A stretch of DNA of 64,000 nucleotides from Candidatus Iainarchaeum sp. (GCA_043803765.1 JAZDJQ010000014.1:1382-65381); one strand, 5' to 3'; positions 11,776-32,209 are shown, numbered from the stretch's first letter. The notes: a model not told the origin generated them from the sequence alone. Translations and numbers: made by a program.

Positions 11776-11812
11776 TCAACTACAACAATGAATGTTGAAC
11801 TGGATGGGACAA

Positions 11813-11864
11813 TATGCCTCTGGAATCGACTTGAACTCCCTACCTCTTGGTTATGAATCCGGCG
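11813..11864 (-). repeat. Degenerate partial copy (pseudo-tRNA) of the 3' roughly 50 nt of tRNA-Met(CAU) on the same strand. Putative attL of the integrated element.
   Basis: Minus strand reads GCCGGATTCATAACC..GGGAGTTCAAGTC....CC.GAGGCA against the tRNA GCCGGATTCATAACCCGGAGGCCGGGAGTTCAAGTCTCCCCCGAGGCA, about 75% identical. The T-stem is no longer complementary. Confidence 0.55.
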
Positions 11865-11882
11865 TGATATTTGCCAGCCTCA

Positions 11883-12278
11883 TCACTTTGCTCCCATGTT
11901 GTTCCCAACGTGCGTGTTTTTCTTTCGGGTTAGACGCTTGAACTTTTTGTTCAATGCTTCGATATCCCTCAAAATCATGCGCTTTAGAACAGTCCATTCG
12001 TACACATTAAGCGTTTTCCCGGAGTATTTGTGGTAGTATTTCCGGGAAAGCGTTTCCGGCGCATCCTCCATCTGCATGAGCTTCCCTTTCCAGAAAACTA
12101 GGAGATATATGTTTCCATTGTGTAGTTCCATGGGCGCGCTCCACCCGCGATAGTGTTTTTCCTCGCAATAGGGAGAAAGATCATCCATCTTTTGGAGATC
12201 CTTTTTGGTCATAGAATTTAATCGCGCGCCAAAATCATTGTGTCTTAGAAAAATAGTTGTGGTTCCCATTCGTTTCAC
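11883..12278 (-). CDS. Hypothetical protein.
   Basis: ORF only. Confidence 0.3.
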   Translation of the reverse strand: MKRMGTTTIFLRHNDFGARLNSMTKKDLQKMDDLSPYCEEKHYRGWSAPMELHNGNIYLLVFWKGKLMQMEDAPETLSRKYYHKYSGKTLNVYEWTVLKRMILRDIEALNKKFKRLTRKKNTHVGNNMGAK

Positions 12279-12303
12279 CTCATTCTCTTTTTTTTTGAAT
12301 TTT

Positions 12304-13008
12304 TCATTGCACCTTTTTTATTTTTTCGACAAGCTCCTTTTTCTTTTTGGTCCATTCGTTGTAGTTTATTCCAAGATAGCGTTTGGAATCAATGGGGTTG
12401 AATTGGGTTATTTCCGTTAGTAGCTCGCGCGGGTAATTCTTTTTCCGGTATTTTTCAAGCAGCTCCTGATATTTTTTTAGGTCAATAGGGGCATATACCA
12501 GTAATGTCAAAATATCAATCGTATCTTTTTGCCCCTTGATAGATTCCCTTCGGTCTATTTCCGCTCCCTGTTTTAGGATTAACAACATTTCGCTGCGAAT
12601 GGTTTTTATCCCTTCGATTTGGATTGTTTCTTTCAAGAGGTCTTCGATGGGGATGGCCAGAGTCGAATAATATGGAGTATAAATGTCGATATCGAATTCC
12701 GATAGTTTTATTTCATATTTTTTTAGTCGATCGTTTTTTTCCAACGAGTATTTTTTCTTTAGAATGGAAAGCGTTTCAAAGTCAACAAGGATGTCGATGT
12801 CTTTACTCTTGTGTTGTTTTGTCCATAACCATACACTCCACCCACCAATAACAGTCAGATTTATCTCCTTGGAAAGCTCCTGTAGCTTCTTCCAACTTTT
12901 TTCCGTCAGGCTTTCGTGCCAGAATTCAGTGGTTCGCATTATTCCAACCCCATTCGGCGCCGCAATGCCTGAATAAATTCCTTGGCATACCATTCTTTCA
13001 GATTCCAC
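12304..13008 (-). CDS. Nucleotidyltransferase-fold protein (minimal pol-beta-like NTase motif).
   Basis: VIGGWSVWLWTKQHKSKDIDILV fits hG[GS]-x13-DxD. A further acidic motif EFDIDIY follows. Confidence 0.4.
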   Translation of the reverse strand: MESERMVCQGIYSGIAAPNGVGIMRTTEFWHESLTEKSWKKLQELSKEINLTVIGGWSVWLWTKQHKSKDIDILVDFETLSILKKKYSLEKNDRLKKYEIKLSEFDIDIYTPYYSTLAIPIEDLLKETIQIEGIKTIRSEMLLILKQGAEIDRRESIKGQKDTIDILTLLVYAPIDLKKYQELLEKYRKKNYPRELLTEITQFNPIDSKRYLGINYNEWTKKKKELVEKIKKVQ

Positions 13009-13502
13009 AAATCCACAAACAATAGCTCATTAGACACAATTTTAATGGATTCGAGAATAGGAGGTGTTGCCAGAACAATAAGATTGGTCGGTCCATCATG
13101 AGGCGGAAATCTTTTTTTGATTTCAGAAAGGGTCTCCACATCGGCATACACGTATATTTCACTATAATCAGCCGGCACATCATCGAATCGAAATTTATAT
13201 CCACTAAAAGCAGTGAAAACAGCTTTCGCCGGCATCATTTTTTCGATATTGCGGACGCTGCCAGTGTGGGTTCGATAAATGATATCCCTGTCCAGATTCC
13301 GCATGTTTGCCCAATAGATGAGAGCCTTTTCCCGGTCTATTATGCGAAAACCGAATTTCCTTTTTTCGATAGCTCCCAACCGAGCAAGGGGACCCAACGC
13401 ATGATTCACCGTACTTAATGAAATTCCCCATTTTTGGGCTATTTCCAATTGGGTTTTAGCTCCCTGAAATAGAGAATAGAACACCCATTCGGATTTCTTC
13501 AT
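12939..13502 (-). CDS. Winged-helix DNA-binding protein, overlapping or partnering the NTase gene.
   Basis: N-terminal wHTH (TQLEIAQKWGISLSTVNHALGPLARLGAIEKRK). 70-nt overlap with the downstream NTase ORF. Confidence 0.4.
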   Translation of the reverse strand: MKKSEWVFYSLFQGAKTQLEIAQKWGISLSTVNHALGPLARLGAIEKRKFGFRIIDREKALIYWANMRNLDRDIIYRTHTGSVRNIEKMMPAKAVFTAFSGYKFRFDDVPADYSEIYVYADVETLSEIKKRFPPHDGPTNLIVLATPPILESIKIVSNELLFVDLWNLKEWYAKEFIQALRRRMGLE

Positions 13503-13933
13503 AGTAATAATATCCCATAAGTGTTTATATTGCTTTCGAATATCGTCGAAATAACTCCACTATACACAATGGGGATAGGACCCCAATTAAGCAGCCGGTT
13601 GGTAGCCGTACTTGTCCATGTGTAGGTGTCGAGCATAGGACACCATAATTTGGATAGGACCAACTCGATGGATTTCTTTTTTCGGGAGTCGGTTTCATTA
13701 TCATGCAAATCTTGGAGGACAATATACAAATCCACGTACATGGAACCATCAAAACGACGACCCATCGGTCGCAGGTTTCCAAAAGTGTTTACCGCGGCAA
13801 ACCTCACTTTTCCGCTTTTGTCTACAATATTTTTGAAGAAAACATCCATGACTTCTCCGATTTTCTCGTCAAAAATGGCTGAAATGGAAATAAAGAAATA
13901 CGCGGATGAAAAATACGCAGCGGAGGGTAACAC
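13499..13933 (-). CDS. Hypothetical protein.
   Basis: ORF only. Confidence 0.25.
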   Translation of the reverse strand: MLPSAAYFSSAYFFISISAIFDEKIGEVMDVFFKNIVDKSGKVRFAAVNTFGNLRPMGRRFDGSMYVDLYIVLQDLHDNETDSRKKKSIELVLSKLWCPMLDTYTWTSTATNRLLNWGPIPIVYSGVISTIFESNINTYGILLL

Positions 13934-13960
13934 TTTATTCTAGGGTGATAGAATCCGGCG

Positions 13961-14390
13961 CTATGGCAGACTCTCGATTATTTCTTTTGTGGAATAGATT
14001 TTGATTTTTTCTTGCGTTCCCAAAAGTTTATCGTTTGTCCAAATGGGAGACTTTTCTTTTAAAGCGAGGGCTAGAAAATCAATGTCTTCCGACAGTTCCT
14101 TATGATGGGTTTTTTCGGTCGATTCGATTAAATTTTTCGCTGTTTTCAAAAAAGAAGAATATTCTTCCAGTGGAATGAACTCCACACACGGCCAAATCAA
14201 ATCGTGCTTTTTCAAACTCTTCAATGGTTATTTCCGTTTTGTGCAATATCTCTTTTTGATGATTGTTTATCTCCTCTAACGCATACTCAGGAGAAACGAA
14301 TTCAAAGTCCTGACTGGTTGACAGTGACTTGAAAACAGAATTAGACCAAAAACAGGTAATCAGAATATTGGTATCGACCACGAGCTTCAT
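13961..14390 (-). pseudogene. PIN-domain (VapC-like) toxin gene split by a frameshift.
   Basis: N-terminal MKLVVDTNILI (ORF 14100-14390). The C-terminal PIN motif DIDFLALALKEKSPIWTNDKLL lies in the overlapping ORF 13961-14224. Homopolymer runs occur in the overlap. Confidence 0.6.
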
Positions 14391-14432
14391 TCATATCAAG
14401 CCCTTTGCCTTCAAGGAATCTAATCGGCCCTT

Positions 14433-14597
14433 TCAGTCCATTCGTACCAATTTGACAGACCAGCCCGAAATCGCTTCTTCTTCATTCAGTTTTCCAATCA
14501 ACTGTTTCTTCCGCTCAAAAGAAAGAATAGTCAAAACCTTTTCTTCAATATCTGACAGTTTGGCTTGAATCTGCTTGAGAGTAACCGCTTCGCTCAT
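14433..14597 (-). CDS. Putative antitoxin (54 aa) immediately upstream of the PIN gene. Below the ORF-track cutoff.
   Basis: My own translation of the minus strand gives MSEAVTLKQIQAKLSDIEEKVLTILSFERKKQLIGKLNEEEAISGWSVKLVRMD. It ends 40 nt before the PIN start. Confidence 0.35.
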   Translation of the reverse strand: MSEAVTLKQIQAKLSDIEEKVLTILSFERKKQLIGKLNEEEAISGWSVKLVRMD

Positions 14598-14671
14598 ACA
14601 ACAAAATCATTCCTTAGACTATAAAAACACGCTTTAACCAAAACACCAAAATGCACTTTATTCCTGGACAA

Positions 14672-14722
14672 TATGCCTCGGGGGAGGGTGGAAGATAGCG
14701 GTAAACTGCCATTTGTAAGGAA
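14672..14722. repeat. tRNA-Met 3'-end core (atgcctcgggggag) plus a conserved extension. Paralog of 5853-5905.
   Basis: Exact 14-nt core, then roughly 45 nt that is about 85% identical to the 5.9-kb copy. Confidence 0.6.
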
Positions 14723-14822
14723 CAATACCGAACAGTATGTAGGAGTAAATAAAGGTTTCCGAGCCTGCGAGGGGGACATCACCATTTTGGAAAGCAAATC
14801 GATAGTTATTTTTTCAGATTGA

Positions 14823-15221
14823 TCATATTTTCTTTTTTGCTCCAACTTGCATCAACCGCTTTTGAATGTCCGTAAAAAGATTGTCTATTTTTTCGATTTC
14901 TTTGGCATCAAATGTGTATCCTACACCTTTGTAAACAAAAATTTGTGGATTTGTCCCAATAACAGGATTGCCGTGCTTTGTGATATTTGCCACATGGTTT
15001 AAGGAGCCAAGATCTTTATCCAATTGGACTAAATCGACTTCAGTTCCGATCTTTTCGGCCAATTTTAAAAATCGTTTAAAACGATTTAGTGTTGAACCAG
15101 TTTGTGATACCTGATGTTGATGTAAAACACTATTGATAATTATTTCCGAGCTGTTGATCATCGTGGTCACACGGCCAATAAACTGTTGTGCATCAAATAT
15201 TTGACGCTCAAATTCTTCCAT
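14823..15221 (-). CDS. Hypothetical protein.
   Basis: ORF only. Confidence 0.3.
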   Translation of the reverse strand: MEEFERQIFDAQQFIGRVTTMINSSEIIINSVLHQHQVSQTGSTLNRFKRFLKLAEKIGTEVDLVQLDKDLGSLNHVANITKHGNPVIGTNPQIFVYKGVGYTFDAKEIEKIDNLFTDIQKRLMQVGAKKKI

Positions 15222-15232
15222 TCAAACACCGC

Positions 15233-16525
15233 CTATCGCGAATCAGGATTTTCACGCAGATTAATTATCCAGTAAAACCCTGCTCCAATTATTAAAAATA
15301 AAAATAAAATCTGAAGATAGCCCCAGTCACTTGTTTGATCCCAATAAGAGTTGTAAAACACGGTTCCTTTGAAGGCCTTATCCTTGGCTGATGCATAATG
15401 TCCTGCTTTGTATTCAGATTCGCTTCCACTATTGTATAAAACGTAGCCGAGCCAGCTAACTATTTTCAGAGGATTTCCTTTGGACATGTTCTTTTCACGC
15501 AAATCGTTTTCTAAACGCATTTGGGTGTCGGCTGGTCGTTGCAAATCAGCCAAGGCCGAACGATACTTGTCATTTGCCAATTTGCTTTCCGATATTACAT
15601 TTTGAGTGGCGAGTACACTCGGCTCTATGTCCTTTTTGAAATTGTAACCGATGCAATACTGTTCACTGGTTCCAAGATTCCCAATCGCCTCTACCGGCTC
15701 GGAAAAATCAATCTCATCTGATTGAGTTAAAATCCAGAGCGCGAAGTTCGTTTGATCGATGCGTGAGACTGTTTCGCTCGAGTAGTTTCGATTTTTCGCG
15801 TCGTAAAACGGTTGCCGGATTTCATTTGACAGGTTGAACATCGACAAGTCAACCTTGTCCGTGAGGGTACATGAAAGATCGCGTGTTAGCTGTAGGAAAA
15901 TGAAATATTCTGATCCTTGAATGGCCACTACCTTTTTTGAAAAGCGAATCCATTCTCTGCCGGCACGCTCGACAATTTCCCATCCATTTTGTTGCGCCTT
16001 TTCAGCAAATACATCAAAAACTTCTTCGGGAACGGTGGCTGAAATATTCCAAACGTTCGAGTCCACGAAGCTTACGATTTTTCCCGTAAAATTACAAATG
16101 TCGTTGGCCCCAGAAGCCCATTTCTTACACTGAATAGTGTTATCATATGTGGAAAAGGGGAGCTGGTAAATGCTGTTGTAATGGTAGATTGCTTCGAAAA
16201 CCGTTTGCGACTCATTTTCGTTCGTCACGAAACGACATTGGCCACTTTCATTTTTTACGAGGGCTGTCCAATTGGAATCGAACGTCAAGAGGAAGTAACT
16301 TTTTTCATCAAATTCGAGATTCTGGTATTTGAAATCGGGGTTAAACGACCCGTATTCGGGGGCAAAATGATTTGCGTCACAGTATTGAATGTACGCGTAG
16401 TTCGTTTTCGGCTCAATGATATTTCTATCGCCAAGTCCCTTAGCGGCAAACATGAAAAGCCAGCTCCCAACAACCACTACAAGGATGATTGCCACGACCC
16501 ATGCATCCACTTTAGAACCAGACAT
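15233..16525 (-). CDS. Membrane-anchored extracellular protein (TM helices at both ends).
   Basis: N-terminal AWVVAIILVVVVGSWLFMF; C-terminal ILFLFLIIGAGFYWIINL. Confidence 0.4.
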   Translation of the reverse strand: MSGSKVDAWVVAIILVVVVGSWLFMFAAKGLGDRNIIEPKTNYAYIQYCDANHFAPEYGSFNPDFKYQNLEFDEKSYFLLTFDSNWTALVKNESGQCRFVTNENESQTVFEAIYHYNSIYQLPFSTYDNTIQCKKWASGANDICNFTGKIVSFVDSNVWNISATVPEEVFDVFAEKAQQNGWEIVERAGREWIRFSKKVVAIQGSEYFIFLQLTRDLSCTLTDKVDLSMFNLSNEIRQPFYDAKNRNYSSETVSRIDQTNFALWILTQSDEIDFSEPVEAIGNLGTSEQYCIGYNFKKDIEPSVLATQNVISESKLANDKYRSALADLQRPADTQMRLENDLREKNMSKGNPLKIVSWLGYVLYNSGSESEYKAGHYASAKDKAFKGTVFYNSYWDQTSDWGYLQILFLFLIIGAGFYWIINLRENPDSR

Positions 16526-16580
16526 TAAATAGCAAAATATTGATTAACACCTTTTCAACCTTTCGGAGTTTATCATTAGA

Positions 16581-17276
16581 ATGGACCCCCAAATCAAAGA
16601 TGTTCTCACGCTTCTCGACGAAGCGGCCCATAAACGATGGTCGATTCGAGAAGAGCAGTTCAAGATGTATAAAATTGATACAACCGCAGTCGCCCAAGCC
16701 CAACAAATGGGTTTTATTCATTGGACCGGCGCAAACTATATTCTCACCGCAACAGGTCACGAAAAATTGTTACAATACGAGTCAGTCGATTCTCTACGAG
16801 AGATCCGAAAACACCTCCGAGTGGATAAAAAAGGCGTCATTTTTGATAGCAACGCGTACGATAAAATTCTAGAAGGAGCTTTGACAAAGAGTGATATCGA
16901 ATTGAGCCGACACAAAGGATTCGATTATTATATCACACACATCCAGGCAGACGAGGTTGTGCGTTGCCCGGAAGTCGACAGACGCCAGCGATTAACCCTT
17001 GCAATGCTCACGCTAAAGCCAATTGTTATCCCTACCGATTCAACGGTAGCAGGAGTATCACGGGTGGGATTTTCACGGTTAAGTGATGGACAAGACATGG
17101 AAAGCATTCGTAATGGCAGTCAAAGGCATACGAATGACGCATTGATAGGAGAAACTGCAATAAAAAATAAATTAATTCTTGTAACAGAGGACGATAGGCT
17201 TCGAACCAAAGTAAAAGATGCGAAGGGTATCGCAATGACTATCGCTGAATTCAAAAATGAAATCGAAAAAGAATAA
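16581..17276 (+). CDS. PIN-domain protein with an N-terminal extension of about 80 aa.
   Basis: GVIFDSNAY (first Asp motif) and the C-terminal DALIGETAIKNKLILVTEDD (PIN C-terminal motifs). Confidence 0.55.
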   Translation: MDPQIKDVLTLLDEAAHKRWSIREEQFKMYKIDTTAVAQAQQMGFIHWTGANYILTATGHEKLLQYESVDSLREIRKHLRVDKKGVIFDSNAYDKILEGALTKSDIELSRHKGFDYYITHIQADEVVRCPEVDRRQRLTLAMLTLKPIVIPTDSTVAGVSRVGFSRLSDGQDMESIRNGSQRHTNDALIGETAIKNKLILVTEDDRLRTKVKDAKGIAMTIAEFKNEIEKE

Positions 17277-17809
17277 TGAGAGTTATATTCATGAATTTTC
17301 AACCTTCAAACCAGCACCAAAAGTTTTTCGTCGAACATATATTGGCGGCTGGCAAAAAGTATACGAAACCAAAACCAATGGCCACATTACGTCGAACAGA
17401 CTTTGGAAAGGATGGATTTCTGGATTGCTATAATTCCTTTAACCAATATCTAAGGTGGCACTACTCTGGAACAGATAGGGACATGATAAATAGTTTTGTA
17501 CAAAATTTTGGTGCTACCTACCAAACTACTTATGATGGAGGATATCCAGAAAAGTTATATCGGGATTTAACATTCCTACAGAAAAAACAGGTTCCAAATC
17601 TAAGTCAACCAGGAAAATCAATTATCGGGATAAACGATCCGAAAGACTTGTCCCAAGTTATTGATTATTTGTATGTTATCCGATGTAATTTTAATCATGG
17701 ATCATTTTCAGTTCATGACGAACTTTACCAATCTATTGCGATACCTTCTTTTGAGGTTTTTTACTTAATTCTGTTCAAGATTCTTCGCCACGAAATACCA
17801 AATCAGTAA
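17276..17809 (+). CDS. Hypothetical protein.
   Basis: ORF only; its start overlaps the stop of the PIN gene. Confidence 0.3.
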   Translation: MRVIFMNFQPSNQHQKFFVEHILAAGKKYTKPKPMATLRRTDFGKDGFLDCYNSFNQYLRWHYSGTDRDMINSFVQNFGATYQTTYDGGYPEKLYRDLTFLQKKQVPNLSQPGKSIIGINDPKDLSQVIDYLYVIRCNFNHGSFSVHDELYQSIAIPSFEVFYLILFKILRHEIPNQ

Positions 17810-17827
17810 TCATTCTATCTCTAAAAA

Positions 17828-18337
17828 TCACTCAAAATGTATTGTTCCGTTTTCGGCTATTCGTGCGATTTGCCAGTCGTATTTCTTTTCTTTGACTACT
17901 TGGTTTAGTTGTTCTCGTTGTGCGTTAAGCGGGGAGTTTTTCAGGTTTTTTGATAGGAGTAAAATTTCGTCTACTGTTCCATTTTTTGTCATGCCGTCGA
18001 AGACCACGAAGTCGATTGGATTCAATATAGGTTTCATGTCGTAGGGGTTTATTTTCAGTTCTTTAAGGATGGGCGAGATCGCTTTTCTTATTACTTTTTC
18101 TGCGCCTAATTGCCCTTTTTCGATTTGAATTTTTCGAATGTTGGCTTCTTTTTCCTCAAACGATTCGACATTCTGTTCCAATACATTCATCTGTTTCTCG
18201 TAGTCGTCCAGCCATGTTTTTGGTGTTGGGGTTTTGGTGAATATCCGAAGGTCGGATACCCTGACTATTTCGTCACAGCACGGACAAAGGCAGAGTATTT
18301 TTCTAAATTCTTGGTACTCTTCTCCGAATCCTTTCAT
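17828..18337 (-). CDS. Zinc-ribbon plus Hjc-like (PD-(D/E)xK-fold) domain protein, paralog A. The catalytic ExK is apparently degenerate.
   Basis: LCLCPCCDEI Cys cluster; GAEKVIRKAISPILKELK...PIDFVVFDG...VDEILLLSKN. The start is taken at MKGFGEE (ATG 18335-18337), overlapping the upstream paralog's TGA as ATGA. Confidence 0.45.
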   Translation of the reverse strand: MKGFGEEYQEFRKILCLCPCCDEIVRVSDLRIFTKTPTPKTWLDDYEKQMNVLEQNVESFEEKEANIRKIQIEKGQLGAEKVIRKAISPILKELKINPYDMKPILNPIDFVVFDGMTKNGTVDEILLLSKNLKNSPLNAQREQLNQVVKEKKYDWQIARIAENGTIHFE

Positions 18338-18831: not shown

Positions 18832-18847
18832 ATTTTCGCTCCATCGA

Positions 18848-19453: not shown

Positions 19454-19466
19454 TTTTTGCCTCGTT

Positions 19467-20192: not shown

Positions 20193-20262
20193 AGGGTACT
20201 CATAGCGAGGATATTTAATAAGTCACATGATTACTCGAATTGTCAAACCACAAATAGTGCAC

Positions 20263-20409
20263 TCAAACACTTCTTTCTTCCATTCTTCCAGAATGACATT
20301 CACCGCAACTGCTCGAAGAGTTACAGGATGAGCACGCACTCAAACCGCACTTATTGCATATTTTTACCCTGGACGTTGTTCTCTCACAATTATGGCATTT
20401 TATTGACAT
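20263..20409 (-). CDS. Small Cys-rich protein (48 aa, four CxxC motifs). Below the ORF-track cutoff; speculative.
   Basis: My own translation gives MSIKCHNCERTTSRVKICNKCGLSACSSCNSSSSCGECHSGRMEERSV. Confidence 0.2.
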   Translation of the reverse strand: MSIKCHNCERTTSRVKICNKCGLSACSSCNSSSSCGECHSGRMEERSV

Positions 20410-20492
20410 CCAACCACCTCAAATAAGCATTATTCTCCAGGTTTAAAATATTACCCCAAAAATGGGGTTATTTACAAGAAGAATACGCAGGA

Positions 20493-20756: not shown

Positions 20757-20825
20757 ACACCATTTTCAGGGTACCTTTTATAACTCAATAGAACACCACT
20801 TTTGGTGTAGTATTTGGGTTGTTGA

Positions 20826-22874: not shown

Positions 22875-25775
22875 ATGGTTAATATCAAATCTCTTGGAAC
22901 GGGAAGTATCCCGCTTCGGTTAGCCGATTTGATTTCTGAAATGGCCAATAAGGAATGGGAAGAAGGAACATTTATCGAGAAAACGACTCCTATCACGCGA
23001 GATCTAATGCGGTATTGGGACCCGAAAGGAACTTTTTCCGATTCAAGGAAAGTAAATTTCCACGAGGGACAATGGCAGGCTATTTTGAATGCTATTTATG
23101 TCCATGAAATATTGAAAGTGAAAAGCGTCCACGACTTGTATATGTCTATTCGCCCGGAGTTATTGGCTGAGATGGATATGATAGATTTGAAAAAAGAGAA
23201 ATACGACTACCCGAAATATTGTATCCGAATGGCAACCGGAACGGGAAAAACATGGATTTTATCGGCATTGTTGATTTGGCAATATCTTAATGCGAAATAT
23301 GAAGAAAAACCGTCGAATCGATTTTTCAAAAATTTTTTATTGGTCGCGCCGGGAATTATTGTATATGAGCGGTTACTGGATGCATACCTTGGTAAACGAA
23401 AGGAAGATAGCAAAAGGGAATTTGAGGAGTCCGATTTCAAAAAATTCGAATCGCTTTTAATTCCAACTGCCTATACTGAAGAGATCTTAGGTTTTATCCA
23501 ATCTAGCGTGTGCCAAAAAGACGAAATTGGAAGTAAAGTCACTGGAGACGGGCTGATTGCGATTACTAATTGGCACTTATTAATGGGGGACGAAGAAGAC
23601 GATGAAGAAGGGACCCCGCTTGACACACCATACAAGGCTATTCGAAAAATGCTTCCCATTACTCCCGGCAAAACGGGAAAGCATTCGTTGGAAACGTTGG
23701 ACAATCAATACCTGCGCGGGAAGGGGATGGATTTCCTGGTGAATCTTACGGACTTGGTTGTATTCAATGATGAAGCCCACCATTTGGGTGAATTCAAGAA
23801 AGAGGATGAAATACTGGAGAAGAAATGGCAACAAGCATTGGACATGATTGCAAAAAGTAAAAGGAACTCTTTTTTGCAAGTTGATTTTTCCGCCACCCCA
23901 TATATCATAACGGGATCGAAAAAGAGAACGAAACACTTTTTCCCGCATATTATTACTAATTTTGAAATTGTTCGAGCCATTAAACTTGGATTGGTTAAAA
24001 CGGTGGCCATTGATAAGCGAAAGGAAATTGCTTCACTACCATTGGAGTTCAAGGCTGAACGAGAGGGGAACACAATCAATTTGTCCGATGGTCAGCGGAT
24101 CATGCTCAGCGCAGGGTTGGAACGGTTAAAAATTTTGGAAGAGGGATTTGAAAAAGAAGACAAAAAAAAGCACCCGAAAATGTTGGTGACGTGCGAAGAC
24201 ACCTCTGTGGTGCCGTTAGTAACGGAATTTCTGAAACAAAAAGGATTATCCGAAGAAGAAATACTTGAAATCCATTCCAATAAAAAAGGAGAAATCGGCC
24301 AGGTAGAATGGGAAAAAATAAAGATGCGATTATTCAATGTGGACAAGAGCCAAAACCCAAAAATAATCATTTCTGTGCTGATGCTGCGCGAGGGCTTTGA
24401 TGTGAATAATATTTGCGTAATTGTCCCTCTACGCTCAAGCACATCCTATGTTTTATTGGAACAGACGATTGGCAGGGGTCTCCGACTCATGTGGCGTGAG
24501 CCAATATACGAGGACAGCAAACGCGAAAACAGGGAAAAATTATTGATTCGAAAGGAAGAACCAGATAACTATATGGATATTTTGTCCATTGTCGAGCATC
24601 CCGCATTTATCGAGTTTTATGAAAAGGAGTTAAGCGAAGCGATTGGACAGACCAAAGTGCTTCCAAAAAAGGATAAAGTGGTGGGGGATATCATTTCCAT
24701 CGGCCTGAAAGAAAATTATCAAAATTACGATTTCTTCTGGCCAGTTATAATCCATGATAAAGAAGAATACCTGAAATCCGAGGAACTTTCCATCGAAAAA
24801 CTGCAACCTTTTCCAATCAGTTTGGAAGAACTAAAACCATTCATCAATCGAGCAGGTGACACATTCTATGGGGAAGAATTGACCGTCAAGACAAAGTTTG
24901 GGGAATACACAGTAACTTCTGATATTTTTTCAGCCAAGAGCTATAATTCGTTTATTCAAAAAATTGTGAACGCTGTCAGCACTATCACAGTAAAAATTGG
25001 GAAAAAATCGCCTAAAAATTTTCCTACCATGCAAATCAATACTGCCATCGTGGCAAAATTAACTGATGAATACATTCGGACGAGGTTATTTGGGCAAAAG
25101 TTCGACCCTTTACTCGGAAATAACTGGAGAGTCTTGGTCATAACACAGGAACGAATCATTCAGCACATTATCAAAAATATTAGTCAATGCATTTATGACT
25201 TACAAAATAACCTAGACGTTCGCGATGCCCGAATTGAAAAGAGGTATTTTTCCAGTATTGGAGAGATGAAAATACGGGATACATATTCTATCAATGTAGC
25301 CAAAACAATCTACGATAAAATAGGGTTTCCATCGAATAAAGGGGGATTTGAAAAAGCATTTATCGAGTTCATTGATTCGGATTCAAAGGTAAAGGCTTTC
25401 ATGAAAATCAACGAGTATTACCATGATTTTGCCTGTATAATGTACCTTCGGGATGATGGAATGCTGCCTCGATATTATCCCGATTTCATTGTTCGTATAG
25501 CTGACCAAGTCTATTTAGTTGAAACAAAAGCCGACAGGGATCTGAATAATGTGAACGTCAAACAAAAACGATTGGCGACGTTGGATTGGATTGCTAAAGT
25601 GAATAAGTTAAAACTGGAAGATCGAATGAGTTGTATCTGGAATTATGTTCTACTCGGCGAAAATACATTCTATGGAATGAGTGAAAAAGGCGCCACTACC
25701 CAGGAAATACTCGAGTACGCCAAACTATCTAAGGCCAAAGTCGAAGGAACACTTGGAGACTATTTGACACAATGA
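22875..25775 (+). CDS. res: Type III restriction enzyme Res subunit (SF2 helicase plus C-terminal PD-(D/E)xK nuclease).
   Basis: Walker A MATGTGKTW, DEAH box VVFNDEAHHLG, helicase motif VI QTIGRGLR. C-terminal YPDF...VYLVETK. Confidence 0.8.
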   Translation: MVNIKSLGTGSIPLRLADLISEMANKEWEEGTFIEKTTPITRDLMRYWDPKGTFSDSRKVNFHEGQWQAILNAIYVHEILKVKSVHDLYMSIRPELLAEMDMIDLKKEKYDYPKYCIRMATGTGKTWILSALLIWQYLNAKYEEKPSNRFFKNFLLVAPGIIVYERLLDAYLGKRKEDSKREFEESDFKKFESLLIPTAYTEEILGFIQSSVCQKDEIGSKVTGDGLIAITNWHLLMGDEEDDEEGTPLDTPYKAIRKMLPITPGKTGKHSLETLDNQYLRGKGMDFLVNLTDLVVFNDEAHHLGEFKKEDEILEKKWQQALDMIAKSKRNSFLQVDFSATPYIITGSKKRTKHFFPHIITNFEIVRAIKLGLVKTVAIDKRKEIASLPLEFKAEREGNTINLSDGQRIMLSAGLERLKILEEGFEKEDKKKHPKMLVTCEDTSVVPLVTEFLKQKGLSEEEILEIHSNKKGEIGQVEWEKIKMRLFNVDKSQNPKIIISVLMLREGFDVNNICVIVPLRSSTSYVLLEQTIGRGLRLMWREPIYEDSKRENREKLLIRKEEPDNYMDILSIVEHPAFIEFYEKELSEAIGQTKVLPKKDKVVGDIISIGLKENYQNYDFFWPVIIHDKEEYLKSEELSIEKLQPFPISLEELKPFINRAGDTFYGEELTVKTKFGEYTVTSDIFSAKSYNSFIQKIVNAVSTITVKIGKKSPKNFPTMQINTAIVAKLTDEYIRTRLFGQKFDPLLGNNWRVLVITQERIIQHIIKNISQCIYDLQNNLDVRDARIEKRYFSSIGEMKIRDTYSINVAKTIYDKIGFPSNKGGFEKAFIEFIDSDSKVKAFMKINEYYHDFACIMYLRDDGMLPRYYPDFIVRIADQVYLVETKADRDLNNVNVKQKRLATLDWIAKVNKLKLEDRMSCIWNYVLLGENTFYGMSEKGATTQEILEYAKLSKAKVEGTLGDYLTQ

Positions 25776-25972
25776 CTGACTTTGAAGAAATGAGTGTAAT
25801 GTGCCCCAAATGCGGGGAAAAGAACACAATTATGTGGTTCCCTGCGAGACACCATTATGTTAGACAAAAAGGAACAACGGGCGGATCGGAATTAGCCTTT
25901 CGAGGCAAAAACGAAAAAGTACAGGGAAAATGTAAGTGTGGTTATACATTCAAGCCAAAGGATTTAGACTAA
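25772..25972 (+). CDS. Small zinc-ribbon protein, translationally coupled to res (ATGA overlap).
   Basis: CPKCGEK...CKCGYTF. Its ATG at 25772 overlaps the res TGA at 25773-25775. Confidence 0.45.
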   Translation: MTDFEEMSVMCPKCGEKNTIMWFPARHHYVRQKGTTGGSELAFRGKNEKVQGKCKCGYTFKPKDLD

Positions 25973-26095
25973 TATCGACGAACCGATTAGCTCAGTGGAG
26001 AGTGGCCGGAAGTTAGATGGGCGGGATGAATTTTCGTATGAGTACCCGTGCCGTCAAGTGCATCTTTTATAGGTTGAAGGCTGGATAGGTTTTCT

Positions 26096-26638
26096 ATGCC
26101 CACTTTTTATTTTGATATTGAGACTACGGGTTTGGATGAGAAATCGTGCAAAGTGATTACCATCCAGTATCAGGAGTTAGATCGGAATTCGGGTAAACCA
26201 ATTGGTGAACTCGTTATTTTGAAGGAGTGGGAGTCTTCCGAGCGCGATATTTTAGAAAAGTTTTTGATGGATACAGGGGCAGGAAACCCGCACCCTTTTT
26301 CGTTTGTTCCTGTGGGTTATAATTTAACGTTTGAGCATAATTTTTTGAAGGAGCGAACGACAGTGAATCGTTTTGCACCATTCGATATTCTGAATAAACC
26401 TTGTATTGATTTACGGCCCATTGGTGTGATTATGAATCGAGGAGAGTTCAAAGGATCAGGCCTCGATAAAATTACTGGAAAACCCATGAACGGAAGCCAA
26501 GTACCCTCTTGGTATGCCAACAAAGAATATCAAAGAATTGTGGAATACGTTCAAGCCGAGGCCAAAGCATTCAATGAACTAAACGTATGGCTATACCAAA
26601 AACTGCCCGAATTTCTAACAACATTCAAGCAAAAATAG
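26096..26638 (+). CDS. DEDD-family 3'-5' exonuclease (DnaQ/RNase T-like).
   Basis: Exo I FYFDIETTGLD; Exo II-like VGYNLTFEHNFL. Confidence 0.6.
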   Translation: MPTFYFDIETTGLDEKSCKVITIQYQELDRNSGKPIGELVILKEWESSERDILEKFLMDTGAGNPHPFSFVPVGYNLTFEHNFLKERTTVNRFAPFDILNKPCIDLRPIGVIMNRGEFKGSGLDKITGKPMNGSQVPSWYANKEYQRIVEYVQAEAKAFNELNVWLYQKLPEFLTTFKQK

Positions 26639-26656
26639 TGTCTGGAATCCATTTTT

Positions 26657-27049
26657 TTAGTTCTCTTCCGGTACTCGCAATCGCTTGACAATATCCTCGA
26701 CGGTAATCCGATTTTCATCGTCCGCAGGAGGTACTTTTTCCATGGCTTTTACCGTAATCCCGCAAAGGAATCCAATACAGTTCGCATGATTGATAGTAAC
26801 GCGATTTTGGCGGACATCGTTGACCGTTTGTTCCAATAACGCTACCACATCCTTAACACTCTTGATGGCTACCGAATCTTCGGCTGGTTCCAACACCACT
26901 TTGCGTCCATTACGACCGCCTTCTACCTTAGCCAAGTGGCGCTTCTCCACCATCTCAGGCAGTTGTGAGTGTGCAAAACAATACACATCACTCAAGATTG
27001 CCTGTGCTTGGCACATGTTCCCGTCTTCCTTGATATACGTGCATTCCAT
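26657..27049 (-). CDS. Hypothetical protein.
   Basis: ORF only. Confidence 0.3.
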   Translation of the reverse strand: MECTYIKEDGNMCQAQAILSDVYCFAHSQLPEMVEKRHLAKVEGGRNGRKVVLEPAEDSVAIKSVKDVVALLEQTVNDVRQNRVTINHANCIGFLCGITVKAMEKVPPADDENRITVEDIVKRLRVPEEN

Positions 27050-27064
27050 GCCTGATCCTCCGGT

Positions 27065-27496
27065 CTACTTCGTGGTACTGATTAGAAAGGCATAATCACT
27101 ACGGACAAATGGATTGTTTTTTCGCCACAACTTGATAGAAAAGCAGTCCGAATAGCAATCGGATTCACCCGTGAAAATTACTTCGTAATCCATTTTCTTG
27201 ACTACGTCTAAAACGGTTTGAATTTCCATCCCAGTAACTAAGCACGGTTGCAAAGTGATTACGTGTGTTTTTGGATTATACCTCGCTTCGTGGGTGACAC
27301 GGCTATGGCCTTTTGGGGCGAGCTTATTCAGAATCGATAACTCTGGATTCGTGTAAGCTAGACATTGTGGGTCACCACATAAATAATCCTCGATAGCCCC
27401 GTGGTTCATGTATTCCTTGGTACGATAAACTGTTTTACCGCACTCTGGACAGGGAAAGTCGTTTGCTTGTATCTCTATTCTTTCAGTTTCATTCAT
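27065..27496 (-). CDS. Hypothetical zinc-ribbon protein.
   Basis: CPECGKT...CGDPQC. Confidence 0.35.
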   Translation of the reverse strand: MNETERIEIQANDFPCPECGKTVYRTKEYMNHGAIEDYLCGDPQCLAYTNPELSILNKLAPKGHSRVTHEARYNPKTHVITLQPCLVTGMEIQTVLDVVKKMDYEVIFTGESDCYSDCFSIKLWRKNNPFVRSDYAFLISTTK

Positions 27497-27544
27497 ATTT
27501 TCACCTCGTTTTTAGAGAGAGCGAGCACGCGCCCACCCCACATG

Positions 27545-29065
27545 TTATAGTTGTTCAGTTGCCCCTCCCGTATTTGCTGTGCTACCCGTTTCTGCTGTGG
27601 AGAGATCTATTCCGCCTAATTCGTCTCCACTCAACGAAGCACGGGTGTCACGGGCCGCACGGGAGTTACGGGAGAGCCACCGTTTCGCATTATATTTTGC
27701 GAACAGGCTGTTCATTGAGGCATCCTCCCATTGAATCGCGCGGATACTATTCCCCTCTGAATTTTTCTCGTAATCGACACGGATTCCAAGTGCTTTCAGA
27801 CGCTTCCCAATAATCCCCCCTCTGTCAGTCCTATTCAGAACTGTAGTCGCAACGTCGCTGGGGGTGATTTCTTTTGTTAGGTTCGCCTCACTCCGCTCGA
27901 TAAGATAGTGAACGATTTGCCCATCCAAAGTGGATTCACGTTCCTTTACCACACGAAGGTTGTACCCGTATACAAAATTGGTGAACTTGTCCCATAGAAC
28001 AGGGTCGTTTCCAAAAAGAACGGAAAAAGCAAGCATGGCCTGCTTAATACGTGAGTCCGCCCCGCCCAGTTGCATTTCCTGGATGATGTCAACGTTAAGC
28101 TTGTTCCGGTTACGCAACCGATACATCAAGAGCTTCCCGCGCAGTTCCTCCTGTTCGAGATAAAACCATGATGGAAGTATATTTGGAATATCATCACGCT
28201 TCGTTTCCTTCATTTCCTCCGTAATACATCGACTTTCGAGTGCTGAATCGGAAAAAGTCGACCGCGAACTAATTACCTTAGGGCCAAAAACGTCATGAGT
28301 TTCAATGTCATTTGGATCGTTTACATCACATCGCAAAACAGGCTTATTTCGCTCATATCCACAGTTAAGAATTTTCACGACCTCATCGGCATGGTCACTT
28401 TTTCTACGATCCGCTTCTTCGATAATGACGGTACCTTTCCAAACGCTCTGCATCCGATACAAAGGCGCCGCTGTTACTGCACCATTTGAAAGGATTGGAC
28501 GATAACACAAATGCCCAACCGCATCCAAACCGCGTGTCTTTCCAGTCGAAAAGTCTCCAATGAAACGGAGATATGGAACGGTGTGCAGAATATCAAATAC
28601 CCATGAAAGGAGAACGTAATACGCTGAAAAAAGTTCAAAATCGCTGGAAACATCTACGTACTTGTGAACAAACGCGCGAACATCTTCAACCAGTTTTTCC
28701 TCGCTTTCGTATTCTATGGCTTTCTTTGGCAAAATGACCGCGCGCTTTTTTACAGTTTCATTAACGAGCGGACAATACCTTTTCCCTAAGTAGTCCACGA
28801 AGTCAGAGTATTCTATTTTTCCTTCTTCCGTCAAGTGTACGAATTGTGCAGTATTACCATCAAACACAAGTTCGTAAATGGTGTTCCCAACTTCCACCAT
28901 AGGTGTCTCCTCTTCTTCAAGGCCCATGAACGAAAACTTTTCGCCACTACATCCAGAACATTTTTCAGGAGGATTCTGGGAGGCCATTATTACGGTGCAG
29001 TTATTGCACGCCCACGCTTGCGGGGTTAGATATAGTTTTCCTCGTGCCATTTTATTCACCCCCAT
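27545..29065 (-). CDS. P-loop NTPase with an N-terminal zinc ribbon. Putative SF3-like helicase or replication protein of the integrated element.
   Basis: Zn ribbon CNNCTV...CSGCSG. Walker A IGDFSTGKTRG. Walker B GTVIIEEAD. Confidence 0.5.
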   Translation of the reverse strand: MGVNKMARGKLYLTPQAWACNNCTVIMASQNPPEKCSGCSGEKFSFMGLEEEETPMVEVGNTIYELVFDGNTAQFVHLTEEGKIEYSDFVDYLGKRYCPLVNETVKKRAVILPKKAIEYESEEKLVEDVRAFVHKYVDVSSDFELFSAYYVLLSWVFDILHTVPYLRFIGDFSTGKTRGLDAVGHLCYRPILSNGAVTAAPLYRMQSVWKGTVIIEEADRRKSDHADEVVKILNCGYERNKPVLRCDVNDPNDIETHDVFGPKVISSRSTFSDSALESRCITEEMKETKRDDIPNILPSWFYLEQEELRGKLLMYRLRNRNKLNVDIIQEMQLGGADSRIKQAMLAFSVLFGNDPVLWDKFTNFVYGYNLRVVKERESTLDGQIVHYLIERSEANLTKEITPSDVATTVLNRTDRGGIIGKRLKALGIRVDYEKNSEGNSIRAIQWEDASMNSLFAKYNAKRWLSRNSRAARDTRASLSGDELGGIDLSTAETGSTANTGGATEQL

Positions 29066-29324
29066 TACGTCGAACAGAGTCTGTTAGCCCAACGATTAGA
29101 AAAGCCTCGCCGTTCGAAACTGCCGGACTAATTGACACGGTACTGCACGAGCCATAACCATTTACCATAGAGCTCGGGATGCGCAGCATGTAACATCTTC
29201 GTTCTTTTGCCCACAGACTGCGTTCAATTCGCAATCCGCGAAAAACGTCAAATTGCTGAGAGGTTGTTCCGGGAATTGTAGTTACCTGCACTCCCGCCTC
29301 ATTTTTAACTATCGTTCGATCCAT
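29052..29324 (-). CDS. Hypothetical protein. A shorter start at MDRTIVK is preferred.
   Basis: ORF only. Confidence 0.25.
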   Translation of the reverse strand: MDRTIVKNEAGVQVTTIPGTTSQQFDVFRGLRIERSLWAKERRCYMLRIPSSMVNGYGSCSTVSISPAVSNGEAFLIVGLTDSVRRNGGE

Positions 29325-29713
29325 ATTGTGTGTCCTGTGGCTTTCCGTTCTCGGCGAGCCACTTTTTTTGGGCTTCCGTCGGCAAAAACCCCCCTTCAAC
29401 GGCTTTACGAAGAAGCGTGATATATGCCGGCGGGGGCGAAAACTCCAATTTAGGGAGATTGGGTTGCATCCGTTTCTCCCTTTTCCATTTCCTTTTGCAG
29501 ACAATACCGGATAAGTCCGCTTAGGGTTCGACCACTATTTTGGCCGTATTCCTTCGCGGCCTCCGCAACGTTGGGTGGCAAGGAAATGGTGATTTTTCGG
29601 TATTTTTCGTGTTTATCGCCCATAACCAGTATGGTCGAGCGCTTATTTTTAAGTATTACGGTAAACTATTCTGTCATATACCAATAATACTTCAGTCATC
29701 GGAGGCTGGTGTC

Positions 29714-30784
29714 ATGGCTCGAAAGAAGGCGACAATAGACCCATATTTCAGGGAGTTGGATAACGAATCAGTTGCAAGTGTTGTCGTGTTCATCTATAAA
29801 ACCCAAAAGGAGACAAACCTACCGGTTCGCTATTTAACAATTAAAAACGAGATTTGTATCGTCAGAAAAATAATGTCCGAAAAGCACCTAACCACTATTT
29901 TGGGGATGTTATTTGAAAAAGAGTTATTGGAAAGGAGAGAAGAAAATCGAAAAAAGGTTTTTTACAGCATTAATCCAAATCTTCGGAATCAAATCCCGCC
30001 CTTTTTTGTTCGTTCATCCGATAGGCAAATCCTTTCATCATATTCTCAAAAAGAAATTGTGGTAGACCAAAAAGTTCGTGCGTATGGACTGGATCATGAA
30101 ACTTTTGATAAACCAGCCAGCCAGCTCTTTTTCCACGGAGTAGGTGTTTCAGATATTTTCCCGATTAAAGAAGATGAGGTAATAGTTATTCTTCCAGACA
30201 GCATGACAAATTCTAAACTGATTATTGGGAAAATATACAAACAGGTACATGAAATAAGCAATAGGAAAGTTTCAATAATGTCGAGATCGCAGCCGCTTTC
30301 TGGGATTCTTCCGGTTTTGAGAAATCTATTGTATAGAACGGCAGAAATATCAAAAGAAAACCGAGCAGGCGAATTAAAAAAATACTATGAAACATATACA
30401 TCACAAGAAAAAGTGATTTCGTCTTTTTTAGGGAGAAACGAAGAAATCCTCCTGCACTTTTTGAGTAAAAAGAATTGGGACAGGGAATCAATTTTGGAAA
30501 ATTTGAAACGTCCCATAATAGGAACCCGAATTGATGATTCCAATTACACCCCAACATGGCATGGAAAAGACATTACTGAACCTTTTTTGAAGGAACTACA
30601 AGAACTGAATATAGAGGAACGAGAAAAGATAGCCAATTTCTTCGTGAGTGTAACACAAAAATGTAAACCTCTCCCTCAAAAAATAAGTCTCGTTGCCCAT
30701 TCGTTAGATCCAATTTTTGAAAAATCGGACTACATCGACAAACATGCAAAAACGTTTATGGATAATATAGATAAACAATTGTAA
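29714..30784 (+). CDS. Hypothetical protein with an N-terminal winged-helix-like region.
   Basis: Start at MARKKATIDPYF, with a GGAGG sequence 8 nt upstream. The longer ORF-track start at 29540 is rejected. Confidence 0.4.
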   Translation: MARKKATIDPYFRELDNESVASVVVFIYKTQKETNLPVRYLTIKNEICIVRKIMSEKHLTTILGMLFEKELLERREENRKKVFYSINPNLRNQIPPFFVRSSDRQILSSYSQKEIVVDQKVRAYGLDHETFDKPASQLFFHGVGVSDIFPIKEDEVIVILPDSMTNSKLIIGKIYKQVHEISNRKVSIMSRSQPLSGILPVLRNLLYRTAEISKENRAGELKKYYETYTSQEKVISSFLGRNEEILLHFLSKKNWDRESILENLKRPIIGTRIDDSNYTPTWHGKDITEPFLKELQELNIEEREKIANFFVSVTQKCKPLPQKISLVAHSLDPIFEKSDYIDKHAKTFMDNIDKQL

Positions 30785-30785
30785 A

Positions 30786-32075
30786 CTATCTGGGTCGCAT
30801 GACTTCGAGTGCTTGCTCAGGAGTCAGTTGATCTACTTTTACGTTGAGTTTGTTCATCGCTTCAACCATCGCATTCAGCACGCTTCGTATTTGCCCATTC
30901 TCCTCCTGCATTTGTGTTAATTTATCTTTGTATTCCAGTCGCGCTTCCAATGTGAGGGGATTGTTGCATTTTTTGCAAAGAAGATTCGTGAACTCATTTA
31001 GTTCACCGCAGATATTGCACAATCGTGGTTTTAGAATACTTTCCTCGTCCTTTTCTTTTTTCCCTAATCCATAGATTTTTCGAACGGCGTCGTGAACATC
31101 GCGCCCAGAAAGATGAATATAGGTAGCGGGCATTTCACTACCAATTTGCCAGCCCATGACCTTGCACAATTGGGCCTCCGTTAATCGTCCAGCCAAATAA
31201 GTTGCGCGGGAGTGCCTCCAGTGATGCGGATTATAGGGTTTGTTGATACCTGCCCTCGTTGTTGTTTCGTCCAGAATTTTTCGGATTGAAGCATAGGAGA
31301 GTCTTTTTCCGCGATGTACGGGAGAAACAATCACAAACAAAGGCGCATTCTTGTCATCGCGTAGGGGGTGAATGTCTAACCATCCGCGAAGAAACGGAAC
31401 ACTGGACACCAAAAGGACTTGCCTCATTCCGGTTTTTCCATCAAGCATGGCTGTGGCTTCGGTTCCATCAAATTGAATTGATTTAATTTTAGCATTACCA
31501 ATCTCACCGATGCGCGCACCCGTTTCCCACAAAATAGAAATGAGCGCTTTTTTCATGGGATGATCGGCCACTTGAATGATTTTGATGATTTCGTCCTCTG
31601 ATAGCATCTCTTCTGGCAGTTTGTGCGAGTTTCCGCTTCGGATGCATTTAATCCATCGGACTTGGGACGGAAAAAAGTCGTTGTCGCCCAACAACCATTT
31701 GTAAAAGGCCTTGAGCATGCGTTTGTGCATAGTTCTTGTAGTCTCCCCCCACCCATTTCGATTCACGATTTGAGAAACAAGGTGTTCAATATCTTCTCGT
31801 GTAGCGGACTCGAAATCCTTCCCGATCATTTCAGCCAAATTAGCCATCGTGAATAATACGCGGATTCGGCGGGCAAGACTGATGCCTCCTTCATTTTCCA
31901 AATGAATTCGATAGCGTTCAATCGTGCGTTTGTTTGTCTCGCTGATAATGTACGGTTTACCCTGCTTTCCGTGCTTCTTCTCAAAATCGCGTGGATATTT
32001 TTCTGGGAAAATTCGACTTAACAATAGCTCGTAGCGTCTTTCGTAGTTATGAAAACTCGTGGCTTCTGGCGGCAT
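30786..32075 (-). CDS. int: Tyrosine recombinase/integrase (XerC/D-phage integrase family) with a C-terminal zinc ribbon.
   Basis: Catalytic residues: WETGARIGE (Arg), HHWRHSRATY (HxxR), YIHL (Tyr). C-terminal CNICG...CKKC. Immediately adjacent to the tRNA-Met 3' end. Confidence 0.85.
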   Translation of the reverse strand: MPPEATSFHNYERRYELLLSRIFPEKYPRDFEKKHGKQGKPYIISETNKRTIERYRIHLENEGGISLARRIRVLFTMANLAEMIGKDFESATREDIEHLVSQIVNRNGWGETTRTMHKRMLKAFYKWLLGDNDFFPSQVRWIKCIRSGNSHKLPEEMLSEDEIIKIIQVADHPMKKALISILWETGARIGEIGNAKIKSIQFDGTEATAMLDGKTGMRQVLLVSSVPFLRGWLDIHPLRDDKNAPLFVIVSPVHRGKRLSYASIRKILDETTTRAGINKPYNPHHWRHSRATYLAGRLTEAQLCKVMGWQIGSEMPATYIHLSGRDVHDAVRKIYGLGKKEKDEESILKPRLCNICGELNEFTNLLCKKCNNPLTLEARLEYKDKLTQMQEENGQIRSVLNAMVEAMNKLNVKVDQLTPEQALEVMRPR

Positions 32076-32135
32076 ATAGGCACTCCCCGTTCGGTTGGTT
32101 TTATTCTTTACGGGGGCACTTTACTGCCATCTTCA

Positions 32136-32209
32136 ATGCCTCGGGGGAGACTTGAACTCCCGGCCTCCGGGTTATGAATCCGGCGCTCTAACCAACTGAG
32201 CTACCAAGG
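32136..32209 (-). tRNA. tRNA-Met/Ile2 (anticodon CAU), elongator type (G1:C72). No encoded CCA.
   Basis: Manual fold: GCCTTGG-TA-GCTC-AGTTGGTTA-GAGC-G-CCGGA-TTCATAA-CCCGG-AGGCC-GGGAG-TTCAAGT-CTCCC-CCGAGGC-A. Confidence 0.8.

Follow-up and report, generated by a model that had tools for sequence, protein, structure and literature searches.

Tandem arrays, short attachment (att) sites, targets in the 3' ends of tRNA genes and repeated use of one site are all documented for archaeal elements mobilised by tyrosine recombinases (PMC6563490, PMC8371274). In thaumarchaea, the att sites have a median length of 17 bp, with the shortest measuring 8 bp (PMC6563490, PMC8371274), and tandem integration has been held responsible for the exchange of modules between elements (PMC8371274). 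In the 'suicidal' type represented by pTN3, pT26-2 and SSV, attP lies inside the integrase gene, which is split upon integration, and the att sites span 40-50 bp; the pNOB8-type enzymes carry the signature R...YxxR...Y (PMC8371274). We analysed a 64,000-nt stretch of the genome of Candidatus Iainarchaeum sp. (GCA_043803765.1, JAZDJQ010000014.1:1382-65381), referred to below as the window, in which a tRNA-Met gene is followed by an island of integrated DNA. The member of this island next to the tRNA, designated E1, is of an ordinary kind: it belongs to the classical, non-split archaeal integrase type, it stands in a tandem array, and it reveals no new mechanism.

We place E1 at positions 14673-32149 (17,477 bp, both cores included), with older insertions in tandem beyond it, and assign this reading a probability of roughly 80%. 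The placement is based on a shared core repeat, on inverted-repeat arms next to it, on a homologous element in another genome, and on a compensatory change in the arms. The homologous element, E_b, and a second one, E_a, lie in locus L001, a contig of the metagenome-assembled genome (MAG) of an uncultured archaeon (CAYIIU010000009.1) that was the sole close relative in the genome collection searched. The features that define the junctions are as follows.

32137-32210, minus strand: tRNA-Met(CAT) gene, the integration target (attB side), called by ARAGORN.
32136-32149, minus strand: core copy 1, the tRNA-proximal junction of E1.
32116-32135, minus strand: proximal inverted-repeat arm of E1, GAAGATGGCAGTAAAGTGCC in tRNA orientation, inside the 60 nt that separate the core from the integrase start.
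30786-32075, minus strand: intact tyrosine integrase of 429 aa with a C-terminal zinc ribbon (Pfam PF00589).
14687-14763, minus strand: distal end of E1, including the arm GGCAGTTTACCGCTATCTTC at 14691-14710; 88% identical to the distal end of E_b in L001.
14673-14686, minus strand: core copy 2, exact (14/14), the distal junction and true left boundary of E1.
5855-5909, minus strand: core copy with one mismatch (5855-5868), adjoined by another E_b-type distal arm (5869-5909); it marks the junction of an older E_b-type insertion.
3442-3533, minus strand: core copy 3, exact (3442-3455), with an E_a-type distal end; the outermost recognisable junction of the island.

The core is a 14-mer, ATGCCTCGGGGGAG when read on the plus strand, that comprises the terminal 13 nt of the tRNA and one further base. 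It duplicates this part of the target exactly at 14673 and 32136, and the corresponding direct repeats flank the element in L001 likewise. All copies are on the tRNA's 3' side in a single orientation; shuffled sequence predicts 0.23 matches at two or fewer mismatches. The arm beside the cores at 14673 and 5855 reads GGCAGTTTACC(G/C)CTATCTTC in tRNA orientation. As an 18-nt motif it has just three occurrences in the window (expected, 0.03): those at 5875 and 14693 are on the minus strand, and an inverted one at 32115 is on the plus strand. The proximal and distal arms of E1 match at 17 of 20 positions in inverted orientation. When the ends of 14673-32149 are joined, the circle gives a reconstructed attP of GGCAGTTTACCGCTATCTTCCACC-CTCCCCCGAGGCAT-TGAAGATGGCAGTAAAGTGCC, that is, a 20-nt inverted repeat (17/20) around the 14-bp core.

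L001 has the same layout with different occupants. Its tRNA-Met, 94.7% identical to that of the window, is followed by the 9.2-kb E_a, an exact core, the 9.9-kb E_b, a core with one mismatch and an AAA_14/DUF4143 gene. The E_b integrase is 91% identical to that of E1 and the E_a integrase 33%. E_b and E1 have in common both arms, about 90 nt of distal end (88%), the integrase, three small open reading frames (ORFs) and two Hjc-like genes; the block containing these two genes and two further ORFs (17821-20138) is inverted relative to L001 (14928-17282). The older junctions of the window find their counterparts there too, 5855-5909 being 93% identical to the L001 distal junction and 3442-3533 being 87% identical to the E_a distal end plus core. 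The inner bases of the arms are ATCTTC/GAAGAT in the window and ATCTCT/AGAGAT in L001; both arms have changed together with their symmetry kept, which is the pattern expected if both belong to one recombination site. Judged from these features, E1 appears intact and precisely bounded, and it is probably still functional. Separately, L001 E_a (767-9926) encodes a DNA methylase and a HATPase_c_3 protein of 853 aa, possibly a further defence cargo.

The composition of E1, a check proposed with the preliminary description of this region, is offset from that of its host. The GC content is 41.5%, against 43.3-44.3% in host chunks of equal size, and the tetranucleotide correlation to the host is 0.897, against a host minimum of 0.941.

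The same description had recognised a tRNA-Met-anchored element with an intact tyrosine integrase, and the tRNA call, the Pfam match, the catalytic residues and the zinc ribbon all bear this out. The integrase matched Phage_integrase at 8.7e-17 (61.9 bits; cut-off, 27.1) and is full-length relative to homologues of 431-432 aa. From the sequence and an alignment with XerA, the catalytic set was assigned to R188, K214, H284-x-x-R287, W309 and Y319; C353/C356/C367/C370 form the CxxC...CxxC zinc ribbon. Its start codon is found 61 nt past the tRNA 3' end and the att site is outside the ORF; in the published classification the enzyme behaves as the classical (class II), non-split type. The motif H284-H-W-R287 is of the XerA/XerC-like HxxR form, in which the enzyme differs from pNOB8-type integrases and their YxxR. 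The XerA structures 5hxy and 4a8e were the best solved-structure matches to the catalytic domain (about 1e-10). Although the catalytic residues are those of chromosomal XerA, the dif resolvase, the E1 integrase is about 130 aa longer, bears a zinc ribbon and resides in a mobile element beside its att site; against the NCBIfam XerA equivalog NF040815 it scored 77.2 bits, where the cut-off is 220.

Homologues of the integrase at E < 1e-10 numbered 531 and were found across archaea, in Thermoplasmatota, Bathyarchaeota, Nanoarchaeota, Micrarchaeota, Hadarchaeota and Archaeoglobales. They form a large archaeal clade of proteins of about 400 aa, many with a C-terminal zinc ribbon. A search with tblastn found no integrase fragments elsewhere in the island, older relics included. 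An ORF at 6028-7317 with the same length as the integrase (429 aa) was considered as a second integrase and rejected, as it encodes a MacB/FtsX permease.

E1 compares most closely with the classical (class II, lambda/pNOB8-paradigm) archaeal elements and the thaumarchaeal 'cryptic integrated elements'. It resembles them in its intact integrase, in an att site in the tRNA 3' end outside the gene, in a short direct repeat at a site reused into tandem arrays, and in its helicase/primase-type replication genes, restriction-modification (R-M) system and Holliday-junction-resolvase-like genes. Unlike them, it has a DPANN host (Diapherotrites) and a zinc ribbon at the C-terminus of its integrase, and two integrase lineages only 33% identical use one 14-bp core. 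The affinity with pT26-2/pTN3 proposed earlier did not hold up. The pTN3/pT26-2/SSV elements of Thermococcales and Sulfolobales are likewise archaeal, tRNA-targeting, plasmid- or virus-derived and often found in arrays, but their integrase genes are split on integration, whereas that of E1 is a single intact ORF with the att site 61 nt upstream and a core of 14 bp.

Related integrases were found behind other tRNA genes. Those of loci L003 and L004 (72% and 71% identical, respectively) lie about 60 nt after tRNA-Gly(CCC), and that of L005 (47%) lies about 60 nt after tRNA-Leu(GAG). The proximal arm is partly conserved in the relatives that target tRNA-Gly, and the spacer from the tRNA end to the integrase start is partly conserved across all these loci. 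The L003 helicase is 96% identical to that of E1, despite the differing integrase and target tRNA. This combination of helicases and integrases across tRNAs argues against conserved chromosomal synteny and shows that modules have been exchanged.

The genes that fill E1 between the integrase and its distal end include the following.

29540-30784, plus strand: convergent ORF facing the integrase gene, about 356 aa long from its probable start near 29714.
29052-29504, minus strand: small conserved ORF upstream of the helicase, 55% identical to its L003 and 39% to its L001 counterpart.
27545-29065, minus strand: predicted replication protein of 506 aa, with an N-terminal zinc ribbon and an AAA+ helicase of the MCM/SF3 (superfamily 3) kind.
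26096-26638, plus strand: RNase H-fold/DEDD-like 3'-5' exonuclease (Pfam RNase_H_2, 6.6e-7; weak DNA_pol_B_exo2).
20826-25775, plus strand: Type III R-M system, Mod at 20826-22874 and Res at 22875-25775.
17828-18903, minus strand: two paralogous Hjc-like (Endonuc_Holl) nuclease genes (Pfam PF10107, 1.3e-15).
15233-16525, minus strand: 430-aa protein with hydrophobic segments at both termini, known from its translation.

The 506-aa protein contains the Walker A sequence GDFSTGKT and a Walker B motif, and the family alignment shows little or no variation at G169...G174-K175 and E216/D218. Its family comprises 6,417 representatives, the longer of which carry N-terminal primase domains of the archaeo-eukaryotic primase (AEP), RepB, PriL-like or DnaG type. 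The E1 protein has no primase domain; at its N-terminus, a small beta domain comes after the zinc ribbon. Searching the PDB by sequence gave no match, and the fold search alone succeeded: an AlphaFold model built from 40 sequences (predicted local distance difference test score, pLDDT, 85.7) led Foldseek to the NrS-1 primase-helicase, the SV40 large T antigen (LTag), the African swine fever virus (ASFV) PrimPol and the monkeypox virus (MPXV) E5. There was no detectable sequence similarity to the SCCmec Cch, the SaPI Rep/primase-helicase, the NrS-1 primase-helicase or MCM. On the strength of the modelled fold, the protein is predicted to be an AAA+ helicase with a role in replication, such as plasmids, viruses and islands encode.

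In the Type III system, Mod matched Pfam N6_N4_Mtase (3e-46) and PADLOC MTase_III (9e-80). Res matched Pfam ResIII and Helicase_C as well as PADLOC REase_III (1e-28), with an endonuclease domain below the cut-off (E 0.0022). The adjacency of Mod and Res places the pair among Type III systems. Neither this system nor the exonuclease (20.8-26.6 kb) has a counterpart in L001 E_b; the Hjc-like pair is 87-90% identical to that of L001. These genes and the zinc-ribbon P-loop NTPase had been listed correctly as cargo in the preliminary description, but its call of PIN toxins is weak (E 4e-4, below the Pfam cut-off). The ORF convergent with the integrase gene has a positional equivalent in L001, L003, L004 and L005, with clear homology only to that of L003 (28%), and is conserved too poorly across these loci for a useful alignment. 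The 430-aa protein and the other E1 ORFs lacking an assigned function gave no family matches in the Pfam-type scans, PHROGs, PADLOC or NCBIfam.

Its MCM/SF3-like replicative helicase makes a plasmid-like 'cryptic integrated element', potentially able to replicate once excised, the most likely identity of E1. That it is instead a provirus, for example of a pleomorphic membrane virus, seems unlikely to us. The closest annotated integrases do belong to the archaeal pleomorphic viruses GacPV1 (38%) and ThalV2 (34%), and the 430-aa protein with its terminal hydrophobic segments would suit a membrane virus. Yet tblastn of all island ORFs against GacPV1 and ThalV2 matched the integrase alone, and homologues of the VP3-like and VP4-like structural proteins of Pleolipoviridae were not found at this level of similarity. 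PHROGs gave no matches, and no homologue of a structural protein was found in E1; a scan of viral contigs with the integrase yielded no relative. Finally, the helicase of E1 is MCM/SF3-like, whereas a rolling-circle Rep is annotated in both GacPV1 and ThalV2.

Beyond E1, the whole island extends over at least 3442-32149. Moving away from the tRNA, E1 is followed by a 2.85-kb relic, an AAA_14 cassette, an ABC-transporter segment bounded outward by the E_b-type arm and one-mismatch core at 5855-5909, a segment with radical-SAM and TrmB genes that ends in the E_a-type distal end and exact core at 3442, and lastly an AAA_14 gene with a nonsense change. The features of this outer part not listed above are given here.

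11821-14665, minus strand: older relic of 2.85 kb with winged helix-turn-helix (wHTH) and small ORFs, without an integrase.
11815-11864, minus strand: fragment f118, a degenerate 3' half of tRNA-Met; distal att of the relic to its right, with an E_a-type arm abutting on its left.
11790-11803, minus strand: E_a-type proximal inverted-repeat arm CCAGTTCAACATTC, a motif also seen behind the L001 tRNA.
10319-11840, plus strand: intact AAA_14/DUF4143 gene (10495-11775) between tRNA-derived repeats (PADLOC PDC-S01, E 8e-114).
2178-3434, plus strand: flanking AAA_14/DUF4143 gene, convergent with the island.

The relic is bounded by an exact 14-mer, GGACAATATGCCTC, whose only two occurrences in the window are at 11807-11820 and 14666-14679. 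As f118 shares this 14-mer with the junction immediately to the left of E1, we take f118 to bound the 2.85-kb relic, which would have adjoined the tRNA before E1 was inserted. The arm CCAGTTCAACATTC matches in inverted orientation (12/14) the sequence CCAGTGCAACATGC at 3467-3480, which forms the E_a-type distal arm beside the 3442 core, and f118 together with its outer flank (11790-11864) is 83% identical over 75 nt to the L001 sequence made up of the 3' part of the tRNA and the initial 22 nt of E_a. A second degenerate tRNA fragment, at 10319-10368, is 72.5% identical to the tRNA.

The arrangement suggests that tRNA-Met is an integration hotspot at which successive elements would each have recombined with the last approximately 14 bp of the tRNA, every new insertion pushing the earlier ones away from it. 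For E1, we infer that its integrase would recombine attP, the 20-nt inverted repeat around CTCCCCCGAGGCAT, with the identical tRNA 3' end, thereby regenerating the tRNA and leaving the second copy of the core at 14673. E1 would then be the youngest element, followed outward by the 2.85-kb relic, the AAA_14 gene and the pieces with E_b-type (5855) and E_a-type (3442) arms. A composite of several accreted elements, which the preliminary description had held as its fallback, matches these further core copies, arms and relics.

The state of the site in a third genome is instructive with regard to the outer limit. In L006, a Joint Genome Institute (JGI) metagenome contig, the 92% identical orthologue of the flanking AAA_14 gene is followed 20 nt later by an exact core and then by unrelated DNA. 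At the nucleotide level, the contig is homologous to the window over 2025-3433 only, up to the stop codon of the flanking gene, and the core at 3442 thus marks a genuine break in synteny; with different DNA beyond its core, the L006 site is likewise occupied, and occupancy of the hotspot is variable. The L006 core lies at 4641-4654, and the contig ends 130 nt past it. A tRNA-Met-like sequence interrupted by about 70 nt was seen upstream of the AAA_14 orthologue in L006 (3064-3171); neither ARAGORN nor Rfam called a tRNA in this disrupted stretch.

Given such an array, the mobile unit might be larger than E1, either 5855-32149 (26.3 kb) or the whole of 3442-32149, and be excised through an outer core as a composite. 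The 5855 junction has the E_b-type arm with the same ATCTTC inner bases as E1 and 13 of the 14 core positions, fragments of tRNA origin that cannot form a T stem sit inside the array, and mosaic elements have been described as arising through composite excision from tandem arrays (PMC8371274). We nevertheless consider this improbable: the outer core is mismatched, the inner pair is perfect and is matched by an intact element in L001, and no sign of any excision occurring was seen.

Even less probable is a single element of about 20 kb at 11813-32209, the extent originally proposed, with the degenerate 50-nt tRNA copy as its left att site and the degeneracy taken as a mark of age. The tRNA copy itself is real, in the orientation claimed and with a T-stem that no longer pairs, the 3' strand being unable to do so. 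Its identity to the 3' 49 nt of the tRNA is 82% (41/50), slightly above the 75% first given, and an exact 16-mer, GGTTATGAATCCGGCG, occurs in the window only in f118 and the tRNA (expected, 0.02), which is far beyond chance. It also counts for the longer element that no obvious host housekeeping gene lies at 11.8-14.7 kb. Against it, the exact core and its cognate inverted arm lie inside the interval, at 14673-14710, and the L001 homologue terminates at that very arm and core; the cognate end of the integrase element is at 14673-14686, and the earlier left boundary was set about 2.9 kb too far out. In addition, f118 bears the arm of the other element type on its outer flank. The fragments at 10319 and 11815 have an exact 26-nt stretch in common, including the non-pairing T-stem/acceptor block, and because this block is identical in both, its differences from the tRNA are not the product of simple random decay.

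That the repeats are chance or conserved host motifs in ordinary chromosome is scarcely credible, since, for all that the core has just 14 bp and an empty site was not recovered, shuffle expectations fall far under the observed counts, L001 and L006 show the same junction layout with different neighbours on either side of the core, the integrase and helicase modules recur at other tRNAs, and E1 is offset in composition from its host.

Several observations weigh against E1 in a tandem array as we describe it. Metagenome DNA scans with the core plus the left flank of the window, designed as an empty-site test, and with the core plus the E_b proximal arm gave no match, nor did DNA-pattern scans of viral contigs with the E_b distal arm and the 26-nt repeat; neither an empty site nor a circular attP junction was found in these scans. 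The repeat is short, and the case stands on its recurrence, on the arms and on conservation across genomes. It is ambiguous how 3442-14672 should be partitioned, because the arms at 3467 and 11790, a pair of the E_a type, enclose the E_b-type junction at 5855. The ABC-transporter segment (5869-10318) has a host-like GC content of 45.0%, with a tetranucleotide correlation to the host of only 0.836. A fragment resembling 13517-13607 of the 11.8-14.7 kb relic lies beyond the AAA_14 gene in L001. To judge by the sequence, the flanking AAA_14 gene may also belong to the island, which may continue to the left of it.

The AAA_14/DUF4143 genes deserve separate mention. The intact gene at 10495-11775 lies between exact copies of a 26-nt direct repeat, TGCCTCTGGAATCGACTTGAACTCCC (10319-10344 and 11815-11840), derived from the T-arm/acceptor region of tRNA-Met and unable to form a T stem. 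The flanking gene has a single in-frame TAA at 2499-2501, where its 92% identical orthologue P0121 has Glu (GAA), and is either a recent pseudogene or affected by a sequencing error. Its orthologues adjoin a core copy in both L006 (92% aa identity) and L001 (50%), and in the window (2178-3434), L001 and L006 the AAA_14 copies end 8-20 nt from a core. A comparison of the window with L006 shows conservation of the AAA_14 gene and its promoter alone, both outer flanks being different. It is conceivable, though doubtful in our estimation, that the AAA_14/DUF4143 genes of the hotspot may be single-gene cassettes moved in trans by resident integrases. We give this little weight because an invariable association of the gene with tRNA pieces was considered and rejected, none being present at L007-L013, L016 and L017. 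If true, a defence candidate would be spreading among DPANN archaea by means of a mini integrative cassette system. L016 (914-5400) has three AAA_14 genes in a row, of which the first and third include a DUF4143 domain, and the conserved motif CTAATTCTCAAAA...GCCTCACGGCTAACAAAAAAATTAAAAAAAA comes after every one of the three; the arrangement is cassette-array-like, without tRNA pieces.

The right flank of tRNA-Met is core chromosome, with genes for RpiA, HisRS, PolB and SecY. SecY (59596-60981) has a 100% identical counterpart in a 'Candidatus Diapherotrites archaeon' MAG, and its relatives at 84-88% identity are also from Diapherotrites; by this sequence evidence, the host is assigned to Candidatus Diapherotrites (DPANN). 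Exact-match look-ups of the integrase, PolB, SecY and the N-terminal portion of the AAA_14 protein returned no record. Elsewhere in the window (34407-34443, 35528-35609 and 35622-35631), two adjacent 37-nt units that can form hairpins repeat the 3' end of tRNA-Thr(GGT), AGCCTCTGGC, directly behind it, and a looser match lies at a distance of 1.1 kb. The repeats could be terminators or relic att sites of another hotspot. An ORF with a LAGLIDADG_3 domain (40043-41152) ends inside or beside tRNA-Arg(GCG), and a LAGLIDADG_3 gene in L003 (2460-3413) overlaps tRNA-Gly(GCC). A Fic/DOC-domain protein is encoded at 38718-39725, in the host region between tRNA-His and tRNA-Arg.

For annotation, these results correct the limits of the island to 3442-32149 and set the intact element apart from the relics. 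The occurrence of one helicase module (96% identity) with integrases for different tRNAs provides a clear example of module exchange in tandem arrays. The mobile elements of Diapherotrites (DPANN) have been little described, and E1 adds to them a precisely bounded case with a defined attP and attB.

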